This document shows positions 1 to 16,263 of a stretch of 64,000 bases of DNA, one piece after another. The position numbers were made by a program, and so were the translations under genes. Under the pieces are notes generated by a model. It saw only the letters and a program-made list of their open reading frames with translations, searched no databases and was not told the DNA's origin. How positions within the stretch are numbered: the stretch's first letter is position 1; each line of letters opens with the position of its first letter. This stretch comes from Corallococcus coralloides DSM 2259 (GTDB lineage: Bacteria > Myxococcota > Myxococcia > Myxococcales > Myxococcaceae): assembly GCF_000255295.1 (NCBI RefSeq), contig NC_017030.1:6230328-6294327 (forward strand), read 5' to 3'.

Positions 1-1510
1 CACGGCGCTGGCGATCTGCTCGCGGATGGCCTTCACCGGCAGCTCCATGCCGGACATGAGCACCATCGTCTCCAGCCGGGCAATCGCGTCGCGCGGCGTG
101 TTCGCGTGCAGCGTGGTGAGCGAACCGTCGTGGCCGGTGTTCATGGCCTGGAGCATGTCCAGCGTCTCACCGGAGCGGCACTCGCCCACGACGATGCGGT
201 CCGGCCGCATGCGCAGGCAGTTCTTCACCAGCTCGCGGATGGTGATGGCGCCCTTGCCTTCCAGGTTGGGCGGGCGGCTCTCCAGCTGCACCCAGTGGTC
301 CTGCGGCAGCTGAAGCTCCGCCGCGTCCTCCACCGTGATGATGCGCTCACCCTCCGGGATGAACGAGCTGATGATGTTCAGCGTCGTCGTCTTCCCGGAG
401 CCCGTGCCGCCGGAGATGACGATGTTGCGCCGGGCCGTCACGCACATCTCCAGGAACTCGGCCATCTGCGCGGTGACGGTCTTGTACTTGATGAGGTCCT
501 GGATCTTCAGCGCGTCCTTCTTGAACTTGCGGATGGTGATGCAGGGGCCCTTGAGCGCCAGCGGCGGGATGATGGCGTTCACGCGGCTGCCGTCCTTGAG
601 GCGCGCGTCCACCAGCGGGCTGGATTCGTCGATGCGGCGGCCAATGGGCGCCACGATGCGCTCGATGACGCCGAGCACCGCCTGGTTGGAGGAGAACGTC
701 TTCTCCGACAGGGTCAGCTTGCCCTTGCGCTCGATGTAGATCTGGTTGGCGTGGTTCACCATGATCTCGCTGATCTCTTCCGACGCGAGGAACGCTTCCA
801 GGGGCCCCAGGCCCAGCGCCTCGTTGATGACGTCGGTGAGCAGCTCCTCCCGGTCCACGTCCCCGGGAAGCTCCTGGTCCGCCTCCATCTGGTCGATGAT
901 GTCCCGGATGGCCTTCTCGGTGCGGCGCCAGAGCTCCTCGTCCCCGAGCCGGTCCATGTCCATGCGGCGCAGGTCCAGGTACTCGATGAGCCGGTCGTGG
1001 ATCTCCTTCTGGAGGCGCGAGTAGCGCTCCAACCGGGGGTCCACCTTGCGCTTGTTGCGGGCCATGGCCGCGGCCATGGACGCGGGCATGCGGCTGGGAG
1101 CGGCCTGGGCGGGGGCGGGAGCCTCCTCCTCCTCGTAGGCCTCCTCCTCTTCGTAGGCCTCTTCCTCGTAGGCCTCCTCGCCCTGCTCCTCGTCGTAGCC
1201 TTCGTCGACGGGCTCTTCCTCCAGCGGCTCCACGTTGAGGATGTAGTCGCCGATGGAGACCTGGTCGGTGGGCTTGAGCACCATGGGACCGGCGATCTTC
1301 TTGCCGTTCACGAAGGTGCCGTTCGTGGACTTCATGTCCACGATGATGAAGCGACCGTCCTTCTCGACGATGCGGGAGTGGGTCTTGGAGACGTTCCCCT
1401 TGGCGAGCACGATGTCGTTGCCAGCAATCCGGCCGATCGTGATCTCGTTCTTGGGGTACTCCCGCTGCTCCGAACCGCCGCCCTTCTCCGTCAGCGTGAT
1501 GAGAAACATG
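1..1510 (-). CDS. cpaF: Tad/Flp-type secretion ATPase (CpaF/TadA family) with an N-terminal FHA domain. Partial: the C-terminus runs off the window start.
   Basis: Minus-strand translation from the ATG at 1510 gives MFLITLTEKGGGSEQREYPKNEITIGRIAGNDIVLAKGNVSKTHSRIVEKDGRFIIVDMKSTNGTFVNGKK, an FHA fold. This is followed by an acidic (EAYEE)n linker and then a CpaF core with Walker A VISGGTGSGKTTTLN and the TIREL...GECRSGE...HDGSLTTLHANTP motifs. This frame is not in the ORF track because it has no in-window stop. Confidence 0.85.
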
Positions 1511-1658: not shown

Positions 1659-3107
1659 TCAGTCGAAGATGTTGAAGTTCACCTCGGAGCGGGCCTGCTT
1701 GTAGCGGGTCTTCACGTCCTCGATGATGCTGCGGACCTTGTCCGAGTCCGGGTTCACGATGCGCGGGGTGACGAAGATCACCAGCTCGCGCTTGGTGGAG
1801 TCGAACGCGCGGTTCTTGAACAGCTCGCCCACGATGGGGATGTGACCCAGGCCGGGCAGCTTCGCGACGGCCTTCTGCTCGTCGTGGCTGAACACGCCGG
1901 ACAGCACGATGGTCTCACCGTGGCGCACGGTGACGTTCGTCTTGACCTTGCGGGTGCGGAAGCCGGGGATGGCGGACGAACCACCGAAGGACACGGACAC
2001 GGAGGTGTCGATTTCAGAGGCCTCGGCCTCCACTTCCGTCTGGATGTTGCCGTTGCGGTCCGCGGTGGGGCGGATGTTCAGGATGACGCCGTAGGGCTTG
2101 TACTCCACCGTGAACTGCGTGTTGGTGATGAGGGGGATGGGCACCTCGCCGCCGGCGAGGAACTCCGCCTTCTCACCGCTGGCGCACACCAGCTTGGGCT
2201 GCGCCAGCAGGCGGCCGTAACCGTCGTTGGCCTGGAAGCCGATGCTCAGGTCGGAGCCGCCCGTCGCGCCCATCACCAGGTTGGAGATGGCGTCGCCGGA
2301 GGGGATGAGCGCCTTGTTCAGCGTCGCGGTGGCGGTCAGCGTGCCGGTGATGTCCGTGGGGTACTTGATGCCGTAGCGGTCGCGGCTGTTGCGGCGGATT
2401 TCGACGAACTGGACCTCGGAGAGGATCATCCGCTTGATGCCGACGACGAGCAGGTTCTCCACCTTCTCACCGATGGCCTTGGTGATGAGCTCCGCCTTCT
2501 GGAGGTCCTGCTGGCTCTCCACGGAGCCCTCCAGGAAGATGGTCGCGCCCACCACGTTGGCCTGCACGTTCTTCAGGCCCGCCTTCTGGAAGGCCGCGTT
2601 CAGGTTCTGGGCGACCAGCTTCTTGGCGTTGGGGGCGATCTTCACGAACGACTTCACGTTCGGGTAGAGGCTCACCACCTGCTCGATGCGGTCCGCGTCC
2701 TGCGTGGTGTAGGCCTGACCGTCCAGGTAGATGCGGTCGCCCACCATGCGCACGGACACGCCTTCGATTTCACCCAGGAGGCGCTTGATCTCCGAGATGA
2801 CCTCGTTGGGGTCCTGCTTGCGGACCGTCACCAGGTAGCTGATGCGCTGACCGGAGGACTTCCAGACGAGCAGTGTCGTCTTGCCTTCGGCGTTACCGGT
2901 GACGAGCAGCTGGCCGGTGCCGAGCGTCTTCACCTCGGCGATGGACGGATCACCCAGCGCGACGCGGCTGAGGCCGGGAATGGTGAGCACCTTCTGGGTA
3001 CCCACACCCAGGCTGACGGAGCTGCCCTCCTGGGCCTGGGCAGGGGCGCTGGCCACCACCGTGACGACGGCGCCGAGCGCCAGGGCTTGCGTGAAGCGAG
3101 TGAACAT
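1659..3107 (-). CDS. cpaC: Outer-membrane secretin, CpaC/RcpA (type II/III secretin) family.
   Basis: 482 aa with signal peptide MFTRFTQALALGAVVTVVASAPAQA. N-terminal BON-like region, then a C-terminal secretin domain (LLAQPKLVCASGEKAEFLAGGEVP...VTPRIV). It lies directly upstream of the ATPase. Confidence 0.85.
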   Translation of the reverse strand: MFTRFTQALALGAVVTVVASAPAQAQEGSSVSLGVGTQKVLTIPGLSRVALGDPSIAEVKTLGTGQLLVTGNAEGKTTLLVWKSSGQRISYLVTVRKQDPNEVISEIKRLLGEIEGVSVRMVGDRIYLDGQAYTTQDADRIEQVVSLYPNVKSFVKIAPNAKKLVAQNLNAAFQKAGLKNVQANVVGATIFLEGSVESQQDLQKAELITKAIGEKVENLLVVGIKRMILSEVQFVEIRRNSRDRYGIKYPTDITGTLTATATLNKALIPSGDAISNLVMGATGGSDLSIGFQANDGYGRLLAQPKLVCASGEKAEFLAGGEVPIPLITNTQFTVEYKPYGVILNIRPTADRNGNIQTEVEAEASEIDTSVSVSFGGSSAIPGFRTRKVKTNVTVRHGETIVLSGVFSHDEQKAVAKLPGLGHIPIVGELFKNRAFDSTKRELVIFVTPRIVNPDSDKVRSIIEDVKTRYKQARSEVNFNIFD

Positions 3108-3153: not shown

Positions 3154-3690
3154 CTATCCCAGATGTTGTTGCTGCCACCACATGGCCCAGAAAGTCCCGA
3201 GCGCGATGGAGACGCCGTAGGGGATGTGTCGTACGGGAGCGGGCGAGGTTTCCTCGCGCATCCATTTCATCCGCACCGCCCAGCGACGGGCCACCGCCGC
3301 CAGCGTGTCCCAGACGGCCCCCTGCCACAGCAGCGTGACGATGGCTTGCAGCGCGCCCGTGAGCGAGATGAAGGCCGCCGCGGCGAGCACCGTGGGAAAG
3401 CCCAGCACGCAGCCCACGCCCGCCATCAGCTTGACGTCACCCCACCCCATGCGCCCGCGCAGCGCACCCGGCACCAGCAGCAGCGCGAGTCCCGCGCCCG
3501 CCAGAAGCCCGCTCACCACCCCCGACTCCAGCCCGCCCACCCCTTCGGACACACCGCGCAGCCCGAGCCCCAGCACGATGAGCGGATAGGTCACGGCGTT
3601 CGGGATGAGCCGGCGCAGTACGTCGGTCACCACCGCAATCACCAGGGCCACTCCCAGAATCGTCCACAGCGCGAGCTGAACAGGTGTCAT
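3154..3690 (-). CDS. cpaA: Prepilin peptidase, A24 family (CpaA/TadV-like).
   Basis: 178 aa polytopic membrane protein carrying the GWGDVKLMAGVG active-site motif typical of A24 peptidases. Confidence 0.8.
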   Translation of the reverse strand: MTPVQLALWTILGVALVIAVVTDVLRRLIPNAVTYPLIVLGLGLRGVSEGVGGLESGVVSGLLAGAGLALLLVPGALRGRMGWGDVKLMAGVGCVLGFPTVLAAAAFISLTGALQAIVTLLWQGAVWDTLAAVARRWAVRMKWMREETSPAPVRHIPYGVSIALGTFWAMWWQQQHLG

Positions 3691-3802: not shown

Positions 3803-4660
3803 TCAGTGGATGACGAGGCGGATCTTCTCGCTGCAGATGAAGTACTCGTCCCCGTCTTCGACCTTGCGGCGCTTGATGCGCTGCTTGTTGAACCAGGTCC
3901 CGTTCGAGGAGCCGAGGTCCTCGATGTAGAAGTCGCCGCCGTCGCGGGCGATGACGGCGTGCTCACGCGACACCTTGCCGGAGTTGATGACGAAGTCGCA
4001 GTGCTTGCCGCGGCCGATGACGTAGCGGTCCTTGACGATCTTCTCCTGCTCGCCGTTCTCCGTGACGAGGTAGAGCGAGGCGCCCTCCTCCTCGTCCGGC
4101 TCCTCCATCGGCTCTTCTTCCTCGGCCTCCTCGGGAGGCTCGTCCTGCATGTCGTCGAGCGGCGGCTCCTCCTGCTCCGGCAGGGGCTCCTCCTCGTCCT
4201 CGATCATGTCGTCCGCGGAGGGCGGGGGCGGCTCGTTCTTGCCCTTGATGAGCCGCTCCAGCTCCGCGGCCGTCTCCAGGACGCGCTCGGCGACCTCACG
4301 GCGCACCGGATCATTGTCCAGCCCATTGGAGGACGGGCGCTCCTCCGCGTTGCGCGCGGCGGGACGCGCGGCTGGCGCGGGGGCGAGGACGGGTGGACTG
4401 CCCTTGGCGGCGGCGGCCGGGGGTGGCGCGGCGGCGGGACGCGCCGCCGGGGAGGGCGCGGGTGACGGCACCGCCGCCACGGCGGGCTCGCCCTTCGTCT
4501 TCACGTCGATGAAGCCGTTGAGACGCGCGAACATGAACAGCGCCTGGTTGATGAGCGCGTCGCGATCCGACCCCATCTGCAGGGCCATCTCTTCGTACGT
4601 CTCCCACAGGTGCTCGGCGATGCCGACCTTGCGTGCGGGACGGGAGTTCTGATCGATCAT
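3803..4660 (-). CDS. RHH (CopG/Arc-like) plus FHA domain protein; putative phosphothreonine-responsive regulator.
   Basis: 285 aa. The N-terminus RKVGIAEHLWETYEEMALQMGSDRDALINQALFMFARL has a beta-alpha-alpha RHH pattern. It is followed by a Pro/Ala-rich and then acidic linker, and a C-terminal FHA domain (KDRYVIGRGKHCDFVINSGKVSREHAVIARDGGDFYIEDLGSSNGTWFN). Confidence 0.7.
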   Translation of the reverse strand: MIDQNSRPARKVGIAEHLWETYEEMALQMGSDRDALINQALFMFARLNGFIDVKTKGEPAVAAVPSPAPSPAARPAAAPPPAAAAKGSPPVLAPAPAARPAARNAEERPSSNGLDNDPVRREVAERVLETAAELERLIKGKNEPPPPSADDMIEDEEEPLPEQEEPPLDDMQDEPPEEAEEEEPMEEPDEEEGASLYLVTENGEQEKIVKDRYVIGRGKHCDFVINSGKVSREHAVIARDGGDFYIEDLGSSNGTWFNKQRIKRRKVEDGDEYFICSEKIRLVIH

Positions 4661-4723: not shown

Positions 4724-6895
4724 TTACTGGAACGCCCGGAGATACGTGAGGTTGTCCACGTTGTCGGTGATGGACTCCAGGGCCACCTGAAGCACGCCGT
4801 CCGCGGAAGGATAGGCGACGTAGGCCAGGCTGGCGCCGTCCACGTCCGTGGCCACCACGGAAGCAGGCAGGGTGTAGACCGCCAGGTTGCTCGACTGACT
4901 GGTGTCCACGCCGAAGACGTAGCGGCGGAAGCGCGGCAGCAGCGTCACCACATAGCGGTCACCCGCCGCCAGCCGGCTCCCCGCGCCAATGGTGGGCGTC
5001 AGCGTGAGCGTCAACGGCGCGGGCACGTAGGTGGTGGGCGACTTGGGCGGCTCCAGGCCCAGGTCGAAGCCGTTCGGGTGGTAGTAGTAGTCCAGGAAGC
5101 TGGAGACCGTGTACGCCTCGTCGACGTTGAGCCGCTGCAGGTACGTGTCGCGGGTCTCCGCGCCCGAATAGAGCACGAAGGGCTTCACGTTCGGGCCGGC
5201 GCGCACGGAGAACAACGGGTACGACGCGCAGGGCTCCGCCGCGGCGGCGACCGCCGGGTCGGACAGGTCCGGGAAGAGCCGCGTGAGGCCATTGCCCTGG
5301 TCCTCCAGGCGCAGGATGGGGATGACCGCCGCGCAGGCGCCCGCGTTGTTCGCCAGGATGATGGAGTCGCCGGGAATCACGCCGCGGGACGCCACCAGGG
5401 GCGTCTCGATGAGGAGCGCAGGGTCCTCCTGGGTCAGGTCGCGAGAGAGTCCGACCAGTCCGGGCAGCACGCCCTGGAAGACGAAGCGGTACGTCCCGTT
5501 GGGCACCGTGCCATTGCAGAGGAACGCCGTGGCGTTGGTCGCATCCGTCACCTGGGGGCAGCCGGGCTGGGTCACGGTGATGCCCGGGAACTGATCCGCG
5601 CGCGCCACCTCGTTGTTGTCCCGCAGCTCCGCGACCACCGACGAGTTCAGCGGATTGCCTTCGGCGTCGCGGTCCAGGTTGAACGGGCGCCGCTCGTCCG
5701 CGCGGAACAGGGTGATCCGCCCGTCGGACGACGGCATGAGGCCCAGGAGCGGAATGGGGGTGAGGTAGGCCACGGCGTCCGCCCGGAGCTCGCGGACCTC
5801 CAGGCCCGTGCGCAGCGTGAGGCCCGTGGGCAGACCCGCGGACGGCCGCAGGGTCAGCATGGCCGCGCCGGTGACGTCGCGGGCGAGCACCGGCGTCGCG
5901 GACGGCGCCAGCGGATCCGGCCCGTTGTCGAGCGCGATGACGCCCTCACAGTCAGACGAGTTGCACGTCAGCTCATCCAGCACCACGAACACATAGCGGC
6001 CCGCGGGCTCGGTCACCGTGTCCGACACCTTGTAGCTGGCGTGCGTGGCCACGAGCCGCGCCGGGATGTCCACCAGGTCCGCGTAGTCGGGCACCGCGTA
6101 GGGCGCCGGCCGCGGCCTCTTGTAGGGGATCTCCACGGAGGCCCCGTCCGCGACGACGCGCACGAGCCGGCTGGTGCCGGACACGTTGCGGATGGCGACC
6201 ACCAGCGAGTCCACCACGTTGGCCCGCGCGGGCAGCGTGATCATGGACATCACCGTGTCCGCCGGCTTGAGGCAGAAGACCGGCAGCGCGGGAGGCAGCG
6301 CGGCCGCGTCGAAGCCCTCCGGGCCAGGCAGGTCCTGGCGCATCACCACCCCGCCGCCGAAGGGGCCGCAGAGCTGCTCGGCGGCCTCCGGGCGCGTCTG
6401 GAGCGCGTAGTACAGGACGCTCGGCGCGCCCTCCGCCACCGGGGCGTGCGCGGCGAAGGCGGTGATGAGCTGGCCGGTCGCCAGGCGCGTCACCTCGTTG
6501 AGGCGCGCGCGGTCCGCGGCCACCACGGAGATGCCGCGGCCGCCGGAGCTGCGCGCGTAGATGTACGGGCCGGACACGTCCTCGCCCTTGTCGTTGTAGC
6601 CCACGTCGCGGGTGAGCGAGTCGGGCCGCGCGATGACGGGGATGGCCAGGGGCTCCAGCGGGTTCGGCGCGGGGATGAACTCACGCGGCGTGCGCGTCAG
6701 GTCCAGCACGCGCAGCTCATCCCGGTCCTGAGAGGTGACGAAGACGAGCTGGTTGGAGAGCACCACGTCGTACGTGCCGGACAGACCGGCGGCGCCCGCG
6801 GTGGAGGTGGTGTCGGAGCAGGCGAGCGCGAGGCTCGCGCCGCTCAGCAACAGGGCAGCAAGAAAGCCGCGCTTCAAGGTCAGTTCTCCTGGCAC
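4724..6895 (-). CDS. Large lipoprotein of unknown function (beta-rich, propeller-like).
   Basis: 723 aa with lipobox LALAC after the signal peptide MPGELTLKRGFLAALLLSGASLALAC. Overlaps the upstream lipoprotein gene by 16 nt. Same strand and operon context as the Tad-like genes. Confidence 0.65.
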   Translation of the reverse strand: MPGELTLKRGFLAALLLSGASLALACSDTTSTAGAAGLSGTYDVVLSNQLVFVTSQDRDELRVLDLTRTPREFIPAPNPLEPLAIPVIARPDSLTRDVGYNDKGEDVSGPYIYARSSGGRGISVVAADRARLNEVTRLATGQLITAFAAHAPVAEGAPSVLYYALQTRPEAAEQLCGPFGGGVVMRQDLPGPEGFDAAALPPALPVFCLKPADTVMSMITLPARANVVDSLVVAIRNVSGTSRLVRVVADGASVEIPYKRPRPAPYAVPDYADLVDIPARLVATHASYKVSDTVTEPAGRYVFVVLDELTCNSSDCEGVIALDNGPDPLAPSATPVLARDVTGAAMLTLRPSAGLPTGLTLRTGLEVRELRADAVAYLTPIPLLGLMPSSDGRITLFRADERRPFNLDRDAEGNPLNSSVVAELRDNNEVARADQFPGITVTQPGCPQVTDATNATAFLCNGTVPNGTYRFVFQGVLPGLVGLSRDLTQEDPALLIETPLVASRGVIPGDSIILANNAGACAAVIPILRLEDQGNGLTRLFPDLSDPAVAAAAEPCASYPLFSVRAGPNVKPFVLYSGAETRDTYLQRLNVDEAYTVSSFLDYYYHPNGFDLGLEPPKSPTTYVPAPLTLTLTPTIGAGSRLAAGDRYVVTLLPRFRRYVFGVDTSQSSNLAVYTLPASVVATDVDGASLAYVAYPSADGVLQVALESITDNVDNLTYLRAFQ

Positions 6896-8578: not shown

Positions 8579-10676
8579 TCAGGCCGCGGCGGTTTCGGCC
8601 TGGATCTTGGAAAAGTCCGCCACCTGGTTGAACAGGGCGCCAATCTCCGTGAGGAACCGGATGCGGTTCTCCCGCAGGTCCTTGTCCTCGGCCATCACCA
8701 TCACCTTGTCGAAGAAGGTGTCCACGGCGGGCTTCAGGCCGGTGATCTCCTTGAGCGCGCCGGCGAAGTCGTCCGCGCGCACGTGCTCGCCCACCCTGGC
8801 GCGCGCCTGGGTGAAGGCGGTGTGGAGGTTCTTCTCCGGCTCGTCGGTGAAGCGCTGCGGGTTGGTCTGTCCGCCCGCCACGTCCTTGCCCTGCTTCTCC
8901 ACGATGTTGACCACGCGCTTGAACGCCGCCGCCAGCGGCTGGAAGTCCGAGTGGCCCACGAGCACGCTCAGGGCCTCCAGGCGCTTCTTCGCCGCGACCA
9001 GGTCGTCGAAGCCCACGGCCAGCACCGCCTCCACGACGTCCGTGCGGTGCTGCTCGACCCACAGCGCCTTGAGGCGGCCGCGGAAGAACTCCATCACCTG
9101 CTCGCGCGGGGCCGCTTCACCCGGCTTGCGCTTCACGTTGGCCAGCTTGGGGGCCAGGAGGCGCAGCGCTTCATCCACCGCCGCGGACAGGCTGAAGCGG
9201 TACCCGCGCCCCAGCACGATGCGGATGATGGAGAGGCATGCGCGGCGCAGCGCGAACGGATCCGCCGCGCCGGACGGCGCCTTGCCGATGGCGAAGATGC
9301 CGCACAGCGAGTCCAGCCGGTCCGCCAGGCCGATGAGCGCGCCCGCGTCCTGGGACGGCAGCGCGTCCTCGGCGCCGCGGGGCAGGTAGTGCTCGAAGAT
9401 GGCCAGCGCCACCGCGTCGGGCTCGCCGCCCGCTCTCGCGTACTCGCGGCCCATCACGCCCTGGAGCTCCGGGAACTCGCCCACCATGCCGGTGACGAGG
9501 TCCGCCTTGGACAGCGTGGCGGCGCGCTCCACCGTGGCCGCCTCCCCTGCCCTGCCCGTGGCCTGGGCCAGCCAGCCCGCCAGCGCGCGGAAGCGCTCCA
9601 CCTTCTCCAGGTACGTGCCCAGCTGGCCCTGCCACACCACGCGGCCCAGCTTCTCCACGCGGTCCGCCAGCGGCGTGCGGCGGTCCTCATCGAAGAAGAA
9701 GCGCCCGTCCGCGAGCCGCGCCGCCAGCACGCGCTGGTAGCCGCGCAGGGACAGCTGCTCGTCGCGCACCGGCGTGTTGGACACGGCGATGAAGCGCGGC
9801 AGCAGCTTCCCCTTGGCGTCCGTCAGCGAGAAGTAGCGCTGGTGGCTCTTCATCTCCTGCACCAGGACTTCCGGCGGCAGGTCCAGGTGGCGCTCCTCGA
9901 AGCTGCCCACCACGGGGCTCGGCAGCTCCACCAGGTTCGTCACCTGGTCCACCAGTCCCTCGTCCTCCAGCAGCTGCGCGCCCGCCGCCTTCGCCGCGGC
10001 GTTCACCTTGCGCAGCAGCTCCGCGCGGCGCTTCGCGATGTCCGCCACCACGTGCGCCTTCTCCAGCGCGGCCTCGTAGTCCGCGGGCGCCTTCAGGGTG
10101 ATGGCGCCCGGCGCGAGGAAGCGGTGGCCATAGGTCGTCCGGCCCGCCTTCACGTCGCCCAGCACCACCGGCAGCTCCGTGTCGCCCAGGAGCGCCACCA
10201 GCCACTGCACCGGGCGCGCGAAGGCCGTGTCCACGTCGCCCCAGCGCATGGACTTCTTGAAGCTGATGCCGTGCACCGCCGCGTGCAGCGCGTCCTGGAG
10301 GATGGCCTCCGCCGGACGGCCCTTCTCCTCCACGCGCGCGGAGACGTACTCGCCCTTGGCCGTGGTGGTGCGCCCGAGCGCGTCCACGGACAGCTTGAGG
10401 CTTTCGGCGAACTTCTCCGCCGCCTTGGTGGGCTTGCCCTGCGCGTCGAAGGCGGCCTTGGCGCTGGGGCCCAGCACCTCCTTCGTGATGTCCTCGCCCG
10501 CGTCCGCCACGTCGCGGACCTGGACGGCCAGCCGGCGCGGCGTGCCGAACGTGCGCACCTCGCCGTGCTTCAGGCGGGCGTCGGCCATGCGCTCGGTGAG
10601 CACGCGCTTCAGGTCCTCCAGCGCGGGGATGATGAACGACGCCGGGATCTCCTCGGCACCGACCTCCAGCAGAAGA

Positions 10677-10687
<11 letters not shown>
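8579..10687 (-). CDS. glyS: Glycyl-tRNA synthetase beta subunit.
   Basis: 702 aa with the conserved GlyS N-terminus [19 protein letters not shown]. Overlaps glyQ by 11 nt. Confidence 0.93.
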
Positions 10688-11669
<982 letters not shown>

Positions 11670-11758: not shown

Positions 11759-14020
11759 TCAGTTCGAGTAGGCCGGGAGGTCGGCCAGTCGAATCTGCAG
11801 CTTCGTCACTTCGCCGGGACGGATGGGAGCGGACAACAGCTTGCTCGTACCGCCGGGGTCCTGCGGGTCCACCACGCGCAAACGGTACGTCCCGATGGGC
11901 AGGGGGAACTTGATCAACGGGGACGTGCCCAGCTGCGTGGCGCCGTCGAACACGGCCGCGTTCTTCGGCACGGTGTAGAGCGTCAGCCACCCCAGGCCCG
12001 CCTTCGCCGCCCCCTTCGAGGTGGTCGTGTCGAGCACCTCCGGGTTCTCCACCTGCGTGACGGTGGTGACGGGCTCCGGGGGCTGCTCCGAGGGCTCGGG
12101 CTTCGCGGGGCGCGTTTCCACCTTCGCCACCGCGGGCGCGTCCGTCGTGGCGGCGGGCTTCGTCTTGCGTCCGCCCTTGCCGGCGGGGGCCTTCTTCGTG
12201 TCCGCGGCAGTCGCGACCACCACCGGTTCGGGCGCGGGCGGCTCCGCCACCGGCTCGGGCTCGGGGGTCGTCTTCTGGACGAAGCCCGGCGGAGGACCGG
12301 AGGGCTTCGGCGGCCACTGTCCGTTCGCGGCGGGGTCCACGGGCGGAGCCGGATCCAGCTCCGCCTTCACCCACTGCTTCGCGGAGTCGAACGCCGGCAT
12401 GAACACGCGGCGCACGGGTTCGAGCGTCGCCAGCCAGGCCACGCCGCCCAGGAGGAGGAGCAGGAACAACCGCATGCCCCAGCCGGAGCCCTCTCGGGCG
12501 GGCGGGGCCACGGGGGGCGCTTCAATGGACTCCTCTTCCTCCACCTGGCGTGAGGGCCGCGTCGTGCCGCGCACCGGACGGGTCTTGAAGCGCTGGGTCT
12601 GGAGCTCGCTGGGCGGATCCATCAGCCCATCGGACTCGGCCGCGTCGCGGGCCTCGGTGGGCTCGGGCCGCGCGCTGGGACGGGCCCGCGAGGGCCGCAC
12701 GGCGTCAGCGGGAGGACGGATGACCCGGGGAACGGGCGTCCCGTCCGGACCCGAGGGCCGCTGCGCTCGCGGCGTCACGGCGGGCGTGTTGAGGCGAGAG
12801 GCGCGGGCCTCCACGGCTTCATTGGCGGGACGCGGAGTCGCGCGGGGCGCGGGCGCCGAGGACTCGGCCGCGGCGCGACGGACGGGCGTGGGCTTGAAGG
12901 ACGCCGCGACGTCCGCGGGCGGGGCCTCCGCGTGCGGCGACTTCACCTGCGCGGTGGCCGCGGAGGCGGACTGATCACTGCCCTCCTCCACCTGGAGCGC
13001 CCCGGCGGCCTCGCTGACGCGGGCGTCCTCGGCGCGGCTGGCCAGCTCCAGGAGCGTGCGCGTCTTCTGGCGCTTCTCCTCGAAGAGCTCGCCCATGACG
13101 GCGGTCATCTGGTCTTCGTCGAACAGCTCGGAGCCCAGCGTGGCCTCGATGGCGCGCGCCATCTCCCGGCAGGTGCCGAAGCGCTGGGTGGTGTCGCGCG
13201 ACAGGGCCTTGAGCACCACGGCTTCCAGCGCCTCCGGCACGGCCGCGTTGAGCGAGCGCGGCGCGGGGATGTCCCCGTCCACGATCTGCATCATCACGGC
13301 GGCTTCGCCGGGGGCGTTGAACAGGCGCTGTCCGGCCAGCAGCTCGTGGAGCATCACGCCCGTGGAGAACTGGTCGCTGCGGCCATCCAGGTCCTTGTTG
13401 CGCACCTGCTCTGGGGACATGTACCCGCTGGTCCCCTTCACGGTGCCCACCTGCGTGCGGCCCAGCTTGCCGCGCGCCTTGGCGATGCCGAAATCGATCA
13501 CCTTCACGACGCCGTCGTAGGTGATCATCACGTTCTTCGGGGACACGTCGCGGTGCACCACCGCCACGGGGCGGCCCGACGGATCCATGAAGTGGTGGGC
13601 GTAGTGCAGACCCAGGCACGTGTCGCGAATCACGCGCGCGCTGAAGCCCAGCGGCAGCGCGTACTTGCGCCGCTCCGCCATCTTCACCACCTGCTCGAGG
13701 TTCTGGCCGGGCAGGAACTCCATGGCGAGGTACAGCTCGCCGTCCTCCTCCCCCAGGTCGAACACCTGTCCGATGTTCGCGTGCGAGAAGGCCGCGGTGA
13801 TGCGCGCCTCGTCGAGGAACATCTTGACGAACTGGTCGTCCTTCTTGATGTCGGGGAGGATCTGCTTCACCGCCACGAACTTGCGGAAGCCACCGGGGCC
13901 GGAGGTGTACGCGAGGAACAGCTCCGCCATCCCGCCCATCGAGAGTCGGGTGAGGATCTCGTACTTTCCAATGCGCCGCCCCCGGTCGGGATCGTCTCCG
14001 GCGACTCCCTGCGTGCTCAT
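11759..14020 (-). CDS. Membrane Ser/Thr protein kinase with a C-terminal PEGA-like domain.
   Basis: 753 aa. Hanks kinase motifs (VAVK, HRDVSPKNV, DFGIAK, SGYMSPE) are followed by a Pro/Ala-rich linker, a TM segment LFLLLLLGGVAWLA, and a C-terminal beta domain (YTVPKNAAVFDG...GTYRLRVV). Confidence 0.85.
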   Translation of the reverse strand: MSTQGVAGDDPDRGRRIGKYEILTRLSMGGMAELFLAYTSGPGGFRKFVAVKQILPDIKKDDQFVKMFLDEARITAAFSHANIGQVFDLGEEDGELYLAMEFLPGQNLEQVVKMAERRKYALPLGFSARVIRDTCLGLHYAHHFMDPSGRPVAVVHRDVSPKNVMITYDGVVKVIDFGIAKARGKLGRTQVGTVKGTSGYMSPEQVRNKDLDGRSDQFSTGVMLHELLAGQRLFNAPGEAAVMMQIVDGDIPAPRSLNAAVPEALEAVVLKALSRDTTQRFGTCREMARAIEATLGSELFDEDQMTAVMGELFEEKRQKTRTLLELASRAEDARVSEAAGALQVEEGSDQSASAATAQVKSPHAEAPPADVAASFKPTPVRRAAAESSAPAPRATPRPANEAVEARASRLNTPAVTPRAQRPSGPDGTPVPRVIRPPADAVRPSRARPSARPEPTEARDAAESDGLMDPPSELQTQRFKTRPVRGTTRPSRQVEEEESIEAPPVAPPAREGSGWGMRLFLLLLLGGVAWLATLEPVRRVFMPAFDSAKQWVKAELDPAPPVDPAANGQWPPKPSGPPPGFVQKTTPEPEPVAEPPAPEPVVVATAADTKKAPAGKGGRKTKPAATTDAPAVAKVETRPAKPEPSEQPPEPVTTVTQVENPEVLDTTTSKGAAKAGLGWLTLYTVPKNAAVFDGATQLGTSPLIKFPLPIGTYRLRVVDPQDPGGTSKLLSAPIRPGEVTKLQIRLADLPAYSN

Positions 14021-14110
14021 GCGGGGGCGGATGTTACCCGCCGAACCCTTCCAGGTCGATGACCGTCTTTCCAGACGGCCCCCCGGCCTTCGAAGTCCGG
14101 TGAAAGCGGA

Positions 14111-14899
14111 TTAGGCGCCGAACCGCCGTCGCCGCACGTCGAGCATCCAGCCCTCAAGCGCGGCCACGGCCGGCGGTTGTGGCTCCAGAGGCAACACGGA
14201 GGCCGCGTCCGCCGCGTCGAGCACCGAGAAGGCGCGCGTCACCTCCTGCCGCCACTGCTCGCTGAGTTCTTCGGTCAGCTCGATGCGCTCACCGCTCCGC
14301 TTGCGCTCCACCAGCGCACGGGCTTCGCCAAAGCCATACGGCTCCAGCAGGACGGTGACGTCCGTCTCCATCTCGCCCGTGCGCAGCGCATGCGTTCCGG
14401 TGAGCGTGGTGCGCAGCACGTACAGCAACTTCTTCACGGAGCGGAATCCGCTCTTCTCCCACTCGCGCAACTGCCCCTGCGCGAAGCCGCGGTAGTGCCG
14501 GTGGATGCGCCGCGACAGCACGGCCCGCACCAGCGGCCGCAGCGCCTCCAGCTCCGGCAGGGCCCGCACGGTGATGGCCCCCAGCACCCGCTCGATGTAG
14601 TTGCCGTTGCCCTGGAGGATGCCCAGCAGCACGGGCTGCAGCTCATTGGACGAGTAGTCCACCTCCACGCCCTCCAGCACCTCCAGCCGTTCCGCCGGCA
14701 CGTGCCGGGGCTGGAGGCCGAGGAGCGCGGCGGTGGGCGCGATGTGGATGGCCTTGAGGTCCAGGTCGCTGTCATGCGACGGGAAGCCGTACGCATGCGC
14801 GCCGGACAGCGAGATGACCAGGTGCTCGCGCTGGAGGGACTCCTCGTCCAGCACGCGGTCCACCATGCGCTCCTGATGCTCCGTCACCCTGCCCTTCAT
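14111..14899 (-). CDS. Predicted nucleotidyltransferase (Pol-beta superfamily, PF10127-like), short paralogue.
   Basis: 262 aa with the minimal NTase motif SLSGAHAYGFPSHDSDLDLKAIH (GS-x9-DxD). The C-terminal helical region is shared with the upstream paralogue. A 4-nt overlap with the upstream gene indicates translational coupling. Confidence 0.65.
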   Translation of the reverse strand: MKGRVTEHQERMVDRVLDEESLQREHLVISLSGAHAYGFPSHDSDLDLKAIHIAPTAALLGLQPRHVPAERLEVLEGVEVDYSSNELQPVLLGILQGNGNYIERVLGAITVRALPELEALRPLVRAVLSRRIHRHYRGFAQGQLREWEKSGFRSVKKLLYVLRTTLTGTHALRTGEMETDVTVLLEPYGFGEARALVERKRSGERIELTEELSEQWRQEVTRAFSVLDAADAASVLPLEPQPPAVAALEGWMLDVRRRRFGA

Positions 14900-16185
14900 T
14901 CCGTCCCTCCTTCCAGCGCCGGAGCCTCCGGCGCGTCACGGCCCAGCGGGCCGGGCGTCTTCAAGACCCAGCGCCGCGCCACCTCGTCACCCACGCGACG
15001 CAGCAGCCGGTCCGCGCGGGCGTAATCCGGATGCTCCGGCAACCGGCTCTCGCGGTGCGCGGCCTCCAACGCCGGAGCCATCGCCTCGGCGTCGCGCAGC
15101 ACGTCCTCCAGTGGCACCTGGCCACCCTTGATGTCGAGCAGCCGCGCCTTCAACGCCCCCGTCGCCTCGAAGCCAGGCACCCCGTCGCGCAGCCAGCCCG
15201 TGGCCAGCGCCACCAGCCGCAGCAGGTTGTACGCGTTCTTCGGCCGCAGCTCCCGAGCGGACGGAGGACGCTGACCGCCGCCGCGCGCATACGCCGTGAG
15301 CGCCGCGAAGTCGTTCGACGCGAGCAGCCCCTGGTCCCAGAGCGAGCGGTAGAGCTGCTTGACGTACGTCTTCGCCGCGAGCACCGCGTCCTCGGCCGTG
15401 GGCGCGGCGCGGGGCGACACTGCGGCCAGGCGGCGGGCGACCTCGTCCAGGTCCGGCGTGGGCTCCTCGCACAACCACGCGAGGAGCAGGTCGCGGTGCT
15501 CCGCCAGCCGCTGGCTGCGGGTGAGCTTGTCGAGCTGGCTCATGGCGTAGCGCCCGAAGCTGCCGAAGATGGCCTTGGAGACGAACGCCTCGCGCGCCTC
15601 CAGCACCCACGTGCCCAGCTCGTCCACCGCCGTCGCGCCGGGGACGAAGAGGGTCTCCAGCGTGTTCGGATCCGCGCGCAGCGCCTGCTCCACCGTCTTG
15701 CGGACCTCCCAGTACGTGGTGCTGCCATCCGCGCTCACCAGGTCCTGCGGCGGCTGCCCCAGGCCCAGCGTCCACGGAAGCGGCAGCGCGAACACACCGC
15801 GCACGTCCACGTCGGAGCGCTCATCCGCGAGCCCCCACGCATGACTGCCCACGCGCGTCTCCAGCACCACGCACGGCCGCAGCGCGCCCCAGGCCGCCTC
15901 GCGCCGCTGAGCGAACTGCACCTGTCCCGCGCGCCGGGGCACCAGCTCGTCGCGCGCGAACCACACCTCGCCCACGCCGACGATCTGCACGTCGAAGCCA
16001 CCGTCATGCGCGCGCACCACGCGGCCCACCACGCCCTGGGGGATGCGGCGTCCCCCGGACGCCACGCGTTCCACGCGGGTGGTGACCTCGGTGCCATGCG
16101 GCAGGGGCACCGACAGCCGGTCGATCTGCTCCAGCCCCCGGACGCGCGCCGGAGCGGAGGAAGAAGTCTCGCGGGTGTCACTCAT
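14896..16185 (-). CDS. Predicted nucleotidyltransferase (Pol-beta superfamily, PF10127-like), long paralogue with an extra N-terminal beta domain.
   Basis: Start chosen at MSDTRETSS (ATG at 16185, RBS GGAGGG). NTase motif VGSHAWGLADERSDVDVRGVF. The C-terminal region KNAYNLLRLVALATGWLRDG parallels the paralogue's KKLLYVLRTTLTGTHALRTG. Confidence 0.65.
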   Translation of the reverse strand: MSDTRETSSSAPARVRGLEQIDRLSVPLPHGTEVTTRVERVASGGRRIPQGVVGRVVRAHDGGFDVQIVGVGEVWFARDELVPRRAGQVQFAQRREAAWGALRPCVVLETRVGSHAWGLADERSDVDVRGVFALPLPWTLGLGQPPQDLVSADGSTTYWEVRKTVEQALRADPNTLETLFVPGATAVDELGTWVLEAREAFVSKAIFGSFGRYAMSQLDKLTRSQRLAEHRDLLLAWLCEEPTPDLDEVARRLAAVSPRAAPTAEDAVLAAKTYVKQLYRSLWDQGLLASNDFAALTAYARGGGQRPPSARELRPKNAYNLLRLVALATGWLRDGVPGFEATGALKARLLDIKGGQVPLEDVLRDAEAMAPALEAAHRESRLPEHPDYARADRLLRRVGDEVARRWVLKTPGPLGRDAPEAPALEGGTE

Positions 16186-16263
16186 CGGTCCCTCCTGGAT
16201 GGGATGGTGGGCCACGCAGGACGCAGCGAAGCACACGAGCCTGACCCGGCACGGGGCTTCCCG

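Follow-up and report, generated by a model that had tools for sequence, protein, structure and literature searches.

The gene at the left end of the window - the whole stretch of 64,000 nucleotides from Corallococcus coralloides DSM 2259 that was analysed - is very probably the kilF of Corallococcus, orthologous to M. xanthus mxan_3107 and coding for the ATPase that drives the Tad-like Kil pilus, and its product a class III CpaF for which we infer a docking role for the FHA domain and a supporting one for the linker that follows it. A fusion of FHA and CpaF through an acidic flexible linker is an already known design, neither new nor slippage-variable. Myxobacteria assemble the Kil pilus at sites of prey contact, with KilF as its single motor ATPase (PMC8460266; PMC12075869). 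In M. xanthus, KilF is mxan_3107 (PMC12075869); predation depends on it, and it forms clusters where prey is contacted (PMC8460266), sites at which KilD and KilF co-localise (PMC8460266; PMC12075869), and its motor role there is known by genetics and imaging only (PMC8460266; PMC12075869).

The reading frame occupies window positions 1-1509 on the minus strand and translates into 503 aa with zero internal stops, about 82 C-terminal codons falling past the left end of the window (Table 1). As originally predicted, an FHA domain and a Tad-type CpaF ATPase share one frame, with an acidic repeat linker of Glu, Ala and Tyr between them: the ORF is continuous, and Pfam recognises both FHA and T2SSE in its translation. 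The product is 98% identical to a 585-aa protein of Corallococcus sp. AB030 (WP_121755911.1). It matches the TadA family TIGR03819 with E 6e-93, at a score of 311.7 that lies below the cut-off of 373, the protein being clipped by the window edge. Among solved structures its closest relative is CpaF of C. crescentus (9e24, E 6.9e-110). The predicted FHA beta-sandwich spans aa 1-95 (window 1225-1509), with strands predicted over aa 2-95, and aa 160-231 align with the part of C. crescentus CpaF that precedes NTD2, the domains being named as in PMC12019362 and PMC11300603. With an N-terminal FHA domain, a disordered linker, and a three-helix bundle followed by an NTD and a catalytic ATPase domain carrying Walker A, the protein is, judged from its sequence, a class III CpaF. 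At the end of the linker and just beyond it, M141, P142, A143, S144, D157, P158 and R159 show no variation among 51 orthologues.

Table 1. Features of kilF and of the neighbouring kil cluster 1 genes, in window coordinates
Feature	Position	Strand	Details
kilF/cpaF CDS, N-terminal 503 codons	1..1509	-	ATG at 1509; continuous translation; GC3 0.95
FHA domain	1249..1443	-	PF00498, aa 23-87, E 2.4e-17, full profile length (Pfam)
Linker acidic core	1123..1230	-	aa 94-129, 22 D/E in 36 residues, four Tyr
Degenerate fourth unit GYDEEQ	1183..1200	-	aa 104-109, includes Tyr105
Three good repeat units EEAYEE / EAYEEE / EAYEEEE	1123..1179	-	aa 111-129
Pro/Ala-rich linker end and conserved segment MPASMAAAMARNKRKVDPR	1033..1122	-	aa 130-159, includes basic KNKRK patch
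Three-helix bundle (3HB/NTD1 of CpaF)	817..1032	-	aa 160-231; predicted helices 158-185, 190-210, 220-231
T2SSE ATPase core (NTD and catalytic domain)	49..816	-	aa 232-487, PF00437, E 2e-63
Walker A GGTGSGKTT	385..411	-	aa 367-375, read from sequence; invariant in 51 orthologues
kilC secretin	1659..3107	-	immediately upstream of kilF; Secretin, T2SS-T3SS_pil_N and BON domains
kilA prepilin peptidase	3154..3690	-	Peptidase_A24, E 6.6e-16; M. xanthus synteny
FHA-domain protein, kil cluster 1	3803..4660	-	FHA aa 213-272, E 1.1e-19; M. xanthus synteny
Two kil cluster 1 genes, 723 aa and 587 aa	4724..8643	-	overlap 6880-6895

The assignment to kilF is supported in two ways. First, the protein is 88% identical to its M. 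xanthus DK1622 counterpart over the 503 residues seen. Second, the locus is syntenic with kil cluster 1. The order in DK1622 is glyQ, glyS, genes for proteins of 538 and 694 aa, an FHA gene (288 aa), an A24 peptidase, a secretin, the FHA/T2SSE gene, an FHA-FHA-TPR gene and polA, and from glyQS to kilF the order in the window, on the minus strand, is identical. The secretin gene kilC matches M. xanthus in position and length (482 aa); the FHA gene upstream of kilA takes the place of the 288-aa M. xanthus gene and would, by gene count, correspond to mxan_3104; and the 723- and 587-aa genes are placed as the 694- and 538-aa genes of M. xanthus, between glyS and the FHA gene, with Pfam and NCBIfam searches of their two products returning no matches. 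The gene for KilD lies outside the window. The locus thus resembles M. xanthus kilF in its FHA-linker-CpaF build and in having the FHA protein, KilA and KilC as neighbours downstream of glyQS; it differs in genus, the host being Corallococcus and not Myxococcus. Over 4.5 kb the window is 97.5% identical at the nucleotide level to C. coralloides KYC2213.

Could separate FHA and ATPase genes have been wrongly joined by an error of sequencing or assembly within the repeat? A frame error of this sort, which was to count against the fusion, has a negligible probability: the frame is continuous with GC3 uniform at 0.95, an in-frame linker can be read in 64 of 70 related loci, and FHA and T2SSE lie in a single ORF in 120 of 120 cases among the matches listed, from independent assemblies that include complete genomes. 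With more than 100 orthologues of this architecture we exclude a frameshift or assembly artefact.

The fusion had been thought unrecorded for a Tad CpaF, and this does not hold. Seef et al. 2021 stated that KilF is fused to an N-terminal FHA domain (PMC8460266), and FHA-IDR-CpaF proteins form the "class III" CpaF, mostly from betaproteobacteria (PMC12019362). The proposed search for the same architecture outside myxobacteria gives a positive answer, one that in its breadth across lineages leans partly on PMC12019362: in our own homologue search 57 of the best 150 representatives of clusters at 50% identity have an N-terminal FHA domain, with Kiritimatiellia and Candidatus Raymondbacteria as named cases outside Myxococcota. 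The linkers of these proteins range from 8 to 256 aa and vary widely in sequence. The parallel that had been drawn with T6SS and T3SS is a loose one, in that FHA proteins do occur there but Fha1/TagH and YscD are not known to be ATPase fusions. Closer in build is the class III protein of Achromobacter xylosoxidans (E3HIW0; PMC12019362), which shares with KilF the domain order and a disordered region joining FHA to the three-helix bundle.

Between the FHA and T2SSE domains the protein reads EPLEEEPVDEGYDEEQGEEAYEEEAYEEEEAYEEEE (aa 94-129, window 1123-1230), and the full linker, aa 94-140, comprises 47 aa with a net charge of -21. An AlphaFold2 model built from a 51-sequence alignment is of low confidence overall (mean pLDDT 55.8, pTM 0.41), probably a consequence of the shallow alignment (86-99% identity to the query), and serves solely for the pattern of order and disorder; in it aa 98-142 have pLDDT 25-37 and no secondary structure, and pLDDT stays below 50 over aa 98-156. 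The linker would accordingly be flexible, a reading suggested mainly by its composition and by analogy. Tyrosine is about 6-fold enriched, with 4 residues in the 47 of the linker against 6 in the 456 elsewhere in KilF (binomial P 0.003).

The original prediction described four to five near-perfect 15-nt copies at 1130-1210. The array is less regular than that. The unit CTCCTCGTAGGCCTC is found three times with 0-1 mismatch (1129-1143, 1147-1161 and 1162-1176), spaced by 18 and then 15 nt, and a degenerate fourth copy at about 1185-1206 is merely 77% alike; TRF reports 3.4-3.5 copies with 81-84% matches and 11-13% indels. Shuffling the whole window gives an expectation of 0.19 matches, so the observed cluster is far above chance. 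However, shuffling codons within the acidic tract reaches the observed periodicity in 587 of 5000 trials (12%), and the favoured codons are GAG, GCC and TAC (GC3 0.95). Because the codon shuffle reproduces the periodicity, the DNA repeat is mostly the expression of a Glu-rich peptide under strong codon bias - a by-product of repetitive peptide in strongly biased codons, and no slippage switch. The same shuffle rate and favoured codons rule out the nucleotide repeat as a sign of recent duplication.

Variation among relatives bears directly on the idea that the repeat expands and contracts by slippage between strains, tuning the distance from FHA to motor or providing contingency. We compared linkers from 13 Corallococcus loci, 11 further Corallococcus cluster proteins and about 20 Myxococcus variants. 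Single Glu codons do differ among close relatives: the window has EEAYEEEAY where two related loci (L001 and L005) have EEAYEEEEAY, two C. exiguus proteins (P0271 and P0279) are one Glu apart, and the last Glu run of M. xanthus variants holds 6 or 7 residues. These differences of one or two Glu codons, together with Ala/Pro swaps, make up the variation among these linkers and lend slippage minimal support. No whole unit has been gained or lost in any member of the set, the four Tyr positions are kept in every Corallococcus and Myxococcus sequence examined, and the copy number, which was to be compared across Myxococcus strains, is constant. Moreover, the tract consists of three imperfect copies with a mixed 15/18-nt period, unlike the long near-perfect array, varying in copy number among close relatives, of a slippage-prone contingency locus; its periodicity does not exceed that of the codon shuffle; one residue more or less is negligible for the reach of a linker of some 60 residues; and the bigger length differences between genera sit outside the repeat, for example in the segment containing MTRA. 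A slippage-variable tether is thus very improbable, and at the species level largely refuted.

What is conserved is the arrangement of the tyrosines. Across 65 linkers their modal number is 4. Of 249 tyrosines in the linkers, 241 have at least two acidic residues within the next three positions, and the residue before is mostly A, P or G; Y105 and Y119 are kept in at least 90% of orthologues, all counts being made on related sequences and hence on non-independent observations. At every locus where it can be read the linker is acidic, with a net charge of -11 to -23. As in M. xanthus, the four Tyr positions are laid out within the acidic tract, in units that are more uniform here (AYEEE three times) than in M. 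xanthus (PYEDEE, AYEEDE and PYEEEEEE), and the clade of the window lacks the GPxMTRAGxP segment with which Myxococcus, Pyxidicoccus and Archangium linkers start. In contrast, FHA-CpaF linkers from other lineages are mostly Pro/Ala-rich, 4-36% acidic and usually without Tyr, so that the Glu/Tyr array sets the window KilF apart from the non-myxobacterial linkers examined. The nearest relatives outside Myxococcaceae (P0126, P0127 and P0132) still have P-[AP]-Y-x-[DE]-E motifs, within longer Pro-rich linkers. On these comparisons the [A/P/G]-Y-acidic array is conserved and appears specific to the KilF of Myxococcaceae and Archangiaceae.

One possibility is that the linker is purely a spacer, an entropic, charge-repelled tether in which neither the tyrosines nor the periodicity has a specific function. 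The great variability of FHA-CpaF linkers in length and sequence is consistent with this, as is the finding that composition accounts for the nucleotide periodicity. C. crescentus CpaF (class II; PDB 9e24, 8rjf), which like KilF is a Tad motor with three-helix bundle, NTD and CAD, offers a comparison, although it is without FHA and its disordered region is N-terminal and not interdomain. This bifunctional motor carries a 79-residue N-terminal disordered region, truncation of which reduces pilus extension and retraction and leaves ATPase activity unaffected (PMC12019362); in one study the disordered N-terminus was not required for phage-reported pilus extension (PMC11300603), and by analogy linkers of the KilF type can be dispensable. 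Nevertheless, Tyr is enriched here although disordered acidic spacers are as a rule poor in aromatic residues, and its positions are conserved over two families. We consider a pure spacer possible, if rather unlikely.

Alternatively, the Tyr-acidic motifs may form an array of short linear motifs - either sites of Tyr phosphorylation or points of multivalent contact with a basic partner, for instance the linker between the FHA domains of KilD - that aids clustering of KilF at prey contacts. This would refine the docking explanation without excluding it. The number and context of the tyrosines are kept in a linker that otherwise changes fast, the tract is similar to poly(Glu,Tyr), a classical kinase substrate, and the scarcity of Tyr in linkers from other lineages and the retention of Tyr-acidic motifs in the three nearest relatives point the same way. 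The KilD linker provides a possible partner: its net charge is positive in all 45 loci (+6 to +12) where that of KilF is negative, and the two proteins meet at prey contacts. An acidic Tyr-containing linker, sought in KilD itself, is absent. Against such an array, FHA domains read pThr and not pTyr; the charge complementarity and motif counts are drawn from phylogenetically related genomes; and the literature searched on mxan_3107 has nothing on phosphorylation or the linker. On balance we regard the motif array as unlikely.

The FHA domain itself is informative on what KilF might bind. Phosphothreonine is bound in FHA domains by Gly-Arg (β3-β4), Ser-x-x-His (β4-β5) and Asn (β6-β7). The corresponding G26, R27, S41, H44 and N63 are all there and do not vary among 51 KilF orthologues, which points to an intact set of phosphothreonine-binding residues. 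A ligand in cis was sought in the linker of the window protein: its acidic core is without Ser or Thr, and ahead of the conserved MPAS segment S139 is the sole Ser. The MTR[AT] segment found in Myxococcus and Archangium linkers was rejected as a ligand, being missing here and having G, A or P at +3, a poor match. Glu as a phosphomimetic pseudo-ligand was likewise rejected, on the general ground that FHA domains require the methyl group of pThr. Since the linker offers no good ligand in cis, a partner in trans is favoured. The KilD linker carries a conserved T-x-x-[M/L/I]-P motif, as in the linker peptide GTRAMPSIR, which agrees with the pattern of FHA ligands and may be a candidate ligand of the KilF FHA domain.

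Under the preferred reading, in which KilF is a class III CpaF with a docking FHA domain, a Ser/Thr kinase active after prey contact would produce a phosphothreonine on which the FHA domain docks in trans, binding, partner and kinase in this scheme all being presumed; one candidate kinase is the Ser/Thr kinase encoded at window 11759-14020. Docking would bring the hexameric motor to the contact site or license it there, the polyanionic linker of about 60 residues would keep the FHA domain mobile around the hexamer, and the conserved Tyr-acidic motifs would be probable contact points for a basic partner and not mere filler. By analogy with the N-terminal region of C. crescentus CpaF, the linker may tune the dynamics of the pilus and not ATP hydrolysis. 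KilF with NeonGreen fused to its N-terminus is functional (PMC8460266), and therefore the FHA N-terminus tolerates a large tag, a result that is silent on whether the FHA domain is required. A comparable layout is found in another predator: the Tad motor TadZA of Bdellovibrio bacteriovorus has the order TadZ-linker-TadA, and its N-terminal module and linker mediate recruitment to RomR (bioRxiv 10.64898/2026.07.08.737194). In both cases a flexible linker joins the motor to an N-terminal module for localisation or regulation; that of TadZA is the ParA/MinD-like TadZ and is recruited by polarity proteins, whereas KilF has FHA and its recruitment presumably proceeds via phosphothreonine signalling.

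A more specific and quite speculative version, to which we give a low probability, has the [A/P/G]-YEEE array as a functional motif array of the Kil motor acting with KilD: prey contact would lead to phosphorylation of a KilD Thr, the KilF FHA domain would dock there, the polyanionic linker would zip onto the polycationic KilD linker, and a motor cluster would be nucleated. Phosphorylation of the tyrosines would be a second, less likely version of such a functional array. The Tyr-acidic array and the charge and motif of the KilD linker appear undescribed in the literature searched, and are offered as leads, not findings.

The FHA-CpaF fusion has been published for Kil since 2021, and as a general class of CpaF since 2025, and as it stands matters little. 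On the question of how the signal of prey contact reaches the Kil motor, reviews point at the FHA proteins of the cluster, and here the comparative data name residues for mutation: R27, S41, H44 and N63 of the FHA domain, the four tyrosines of the linker, and the conserved Thr of the KilD linker.

The ATPase gene leaving the window at its left end counts as already known, since both the protein of which it is the orthologue and that protein's architecture have been published. Its product is 98% identical to a protein from Corallococcus sp. AB030 and 88% identical to that of Myxococcus xanthus DK1622, and the DNA is 97.5% identical to that of C. coralloides KYC2213 over 4.5 kb, which places the host in Corallococcus, not in Myxococcus. 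The DK1622 order is glyQ, glyS, two domain-less genes (538 and 694 aa), an FHA protein (288 aa), an A24 prepilin peptidase, a secretin, the FHA-T2SSE ATPase, an FHA-FHA-TPR protein and polA; from glyQ to the ATPase, the minus strand of the window carries the same order. By count of genes, mxan_3103 and mxan_3102 would be the M. xanthus genes of 694 and 538 aa. The locus is kil gene cluster 1 (mxan_3102-3108), with KilF (mxan_3107; PMC12075869) as its ATPase. Killing of prey on contact depends on KilF, which gathers in clusters where the cells touch prey (Seef et al. 2021, PMC8460266).

Features of the kil locus and of the KilF reading frame
Feature	Position	Strand	Remark
glyQ	10677-11669	-	order as in DK1622
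glyS	8579-10687	-	order as in DK1622
Domain-less kil gene, 587 aa	6880-8643	-	no Pfam or NCBIfam match; position of 538-aa M. xanthus gene
Domain-less kil gene, 723 aa	4724-6895	-	no Pfam or NCBIfam match; position of 694-aa M. xanthus gene
FHA protein, 285 aa	3803-4660	-	order as in DK1622
Prepilin peptidase	3154-3690	-	order as in DK1622
Secretin	1659-3107	-	order as in DK1622
kilF/cpaF ORF, 503 codons within window	1-1509	-	ATG 1509-1507, no stop to position 1; gene extends past window
FHA domain	residues 23-87 of ATPase ORF		Pfam E 2.4e-17, whole profile covered
T2SSE secretion ATPase domain	residues 232-487 of ATPase ORF		Pfam E 2e-63
KilD, FHA-FHA-TPR protein	directly downstream of kilF, past left window end; e.g. 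11796-14027 in related locus L072		seen in related loci L001-L072

The two domain-less kil ORFs overlap by 16 nt. In the 285-aa FHA protein, a strongly acidic tract, DDMIEDEEEPLPEQEEPPLDDMQDEPPEEAEEEEPMEEPDEEE, lies directly N-terminal of the FHA domain and is preceded by a Pro/Ala-rich region; Tandem Repeats Finder (TRF) also reports GC-rich repeats within this gene (4406-4478). Just upstream of glyQS, ~3 kb from the first gene of the kil cluster, is a 753-aa Ser/Thr protein kinase (11759-14020, minus strand; Pkinase E 3.2e-35). The kinase is a candidate source of FHA ligands, though its nearness to the cluster may be chance, since such kinases are numerous in myxobacteria. Two adjacent minus-strand genes that overlap each other (14111-14899 and 14896-16236) both match RlaP (PF10127, RNA repair pathway DNA polymerase beta family nucleotidyltransferase).

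As originally observed, the FHA domain is joined in frame to the CpaF core through an acidic Glu/Ala/Tyr repeat: a single stop-free ORF yields both the FHA and the T2SSE matches, and the stretch between them reads EPLEEEPVDEGYDEEQGEEAYEEEAYEEEEAYEEEE-APAPAQAAPSR-MPASMAAAMARNKRKVDPR. The top NCBIfam match is TIGR03819 (TadA family ATPase, E 6e-93), the closest solved structure is Caulobacter crescentus CpaF (9e24, E 6.9e-110), and GC3 is 0.95 (window 69% G+C), typical of a real gene. An alternative in-frame TTG start (1527-1525, minus strand) lies six codons upstream of the ATG and just past an in-frame stop (1536-1534), with an AGGAGG-like sequence at 1535-1530 (minus strand); the same alternative start accounts for the 601-aa and 595-aa database versions of the M. 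xanthus protein.

The fusion of an FHA domain to a Tad CpaF is on record twice, for KilF itself (PMC8460266) and in a 2025 structural study that divides CpaF orthologues into three classes, of which class III (FHA-IDR-3HB-NTD-CAD) is reported mostly from betaproteobacteria and exemplified by Achromobacter E3HIW0 (PMC12019362). With the window's FHA as query, an N-terminal FHA domain was detected in 57 of the best 150 50%-identity cluster representatives from a library of 1.84 billion proteins, and named carriers outside myxobacteria include Kiritimatiellia and Candidatus Raymondbacteria. The top-scoring representatives are proteins of 800-1600 aa in which the CpaF ATPase core stands two to four times in tandem (P0121-P0125, P0128, P0131, P0133 and P0134); these could be genuine tandem fusions or errors of gene calling.

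The nucleotide repeat is weaker than the four to five near-perfect 15-nt copies initially described. Three copies of the 15-mer CTCCTCGTAGGCCTC, each with 0-1 mismatch, lie at 1129, 1147 and 1162 (period 18 nt, then 15 nt), a fourth copy (~1185-1206, coding for GYDEEQ) is 77% alike, and TRF assigns the acidic tract 3.4-3.5 copies with 81-84% matches and 11-13% indels. Whole-window shuffles give 0.19 expected matches, placing the observed cluster far above chance in a test that mostly gauges unusual composition; when shuffling was confined to the acidic tract (36 codons), the observed periodicity was reached in 587 of 5000 cases. Because codon shuffles so often match the periodicity, the DNA repeat does not support recent unit duplication; it is the appearance of a Glu-rich peptide coded almost solely by GAG, GCC and TAC. 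A separate 12-nt tandem repeat, GGCCATGGACGC (2.6 copies, 1060-1090), codes for SMAAAMA of the conserved MPASMAAAMA segment.

Comparison of linkers from 64 related genomic loci and ~140 proteins revealed no gain or loss of a whole repeat unit in any Corallococcus or Myxococcus sequence. In Corallococcus, 13 loci that each represent a species and 11 additional cluster proteins all have four Tyr positions, made up of a single [G/A]Y-D-E-E-Q unit plus three of the form [A/P]Y-E-E-E(E); only one Glu codon and one Ala/Pro change separate the window from its nearest relatives (e.g. locus L003, EEAYEEEAYEEEEPYEEE). Single GAG codons do vary within named species (C. exiguus proteins P0271 vs P0279; M. 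xanthus variants with six or seven terminal Glu), which amounts to minimal slippage. Larger length differences between genera fall outside the repeat: an extra, conserved GPxMTR[AT]xxP segment at the linker start is present in Myxococcus, Pyxidicoccus and Archangium (loci L010-L060), Citreicoccus inhibens (L049) and Corallococcus sp. H22C18031201 (P0043), and absent from the window's Corallococcus clade (cf. 1200-1230). The proposed slippage-variable tether therefore finds no support beyond changes of ±1-2 residues in a ~60-residue linker. The repeat observation is thus partly confirmed and its interpretation partly supported, the architecture having been read correctly and the organism, the novelty and slippage wrongly.

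The modal linker Tyr count is four (65 linkers), 241 of 249 linker Tyr have at least two acidic residues within the next three positions, and most follow A, P or G; in the window's linker Tyr is enriched about six-fold (4 in 47 residues vs 6 in 456 elsewhere; binomial P 0.003). Across 51 aligned orthologues, Y105 and Y119 are at least 90% conserved, and MPAS (141-144) and D157-P158-R159 are invariant, as are FHA residues G26, R27, S41, H44 and N63, which are the canonical phosphothreonine-binding set. FHA-CpaF linkers of other lineages span 8-256 residues, are mostly Pro/Ala-rich and 4-36% acidic, and usually lack Tyr, although the nearest outgroup representatives (P0126, P0127 and P0132) have P-[AP]-Y-x-[DE]-E motifs within longer Pro-rich linkers. 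Judged from these comparisons, the Glu/Tyr array of KilF appears specific to its clade and maintained by selection, and no description of it was found in the literature searched. An AlphaFold2 model built from the 51-sequence alignment is weak (mean pLDDT 55.8) and serves solely as support for a disordered linker; it has beta strands within residues 2-95, no secondary structure at 98-142 (pLDDT 25-37), a short low-confidence helix at 143-151 and long helices at 158-185, 190-210 and 220-231 before the ATPase core, a predicted pattern that fits the class III layout.

As a class III CpaF motor, the protein has all FHA binding residues and a ~60-residue polyanionic linker (net charge -21, residues 94-140). 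Its orthologue is recruited to prey contacts, and neither pilus polymerisation nor killing proceeds without it (PMC8460266, PMC12075869). In C. crescentus, truncation of the disordered N-terminus of CpaF makes both extension and retraction less frequent without lowering ATPase activity (PMC12019362); in a separate study, phage-reported extension was unaffected (PMC11300603). Since the acidic linker core contains no Ser or Thr, the FHA domain would bind phosphothreonine in trans, and might thereby make the recruitment or licensing of the motor respond to a Ser/Thr kinase signal that contact sets off. The linker could hold the six FHA domains of the hexamer extended and mobile, and its Tyr-acidic motifs may touch a basic surface.

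The inter-FHA linker of KilD has a net positive charge (+6 to +12) in all 45 loci, and the KilF linker is acidic wherever readable (net -11 to -23). Within the KilD linker, a T-[RQ]-[AS]-[MLI]-P-[SA] motif is conserved (GTRAMPSIRAK in Corallococcus, for example) and fits the classic FHA ligand pattern of Thr with a hydrophobic +3 residue. KilD clusters appear first, without need of a functional Tad machine (PMC8460266). That phosphorylated KilD docks on the FHA domain of KilF, with the opposite charges of the two linkers strengthening the contact, is a speculative and rather improbable reading of sequence patterns in related genomes. Together, the conserved Tyr-acidic array and the charge complementarity of KilD and KilF offer modest new leads for research on Kil signalling.
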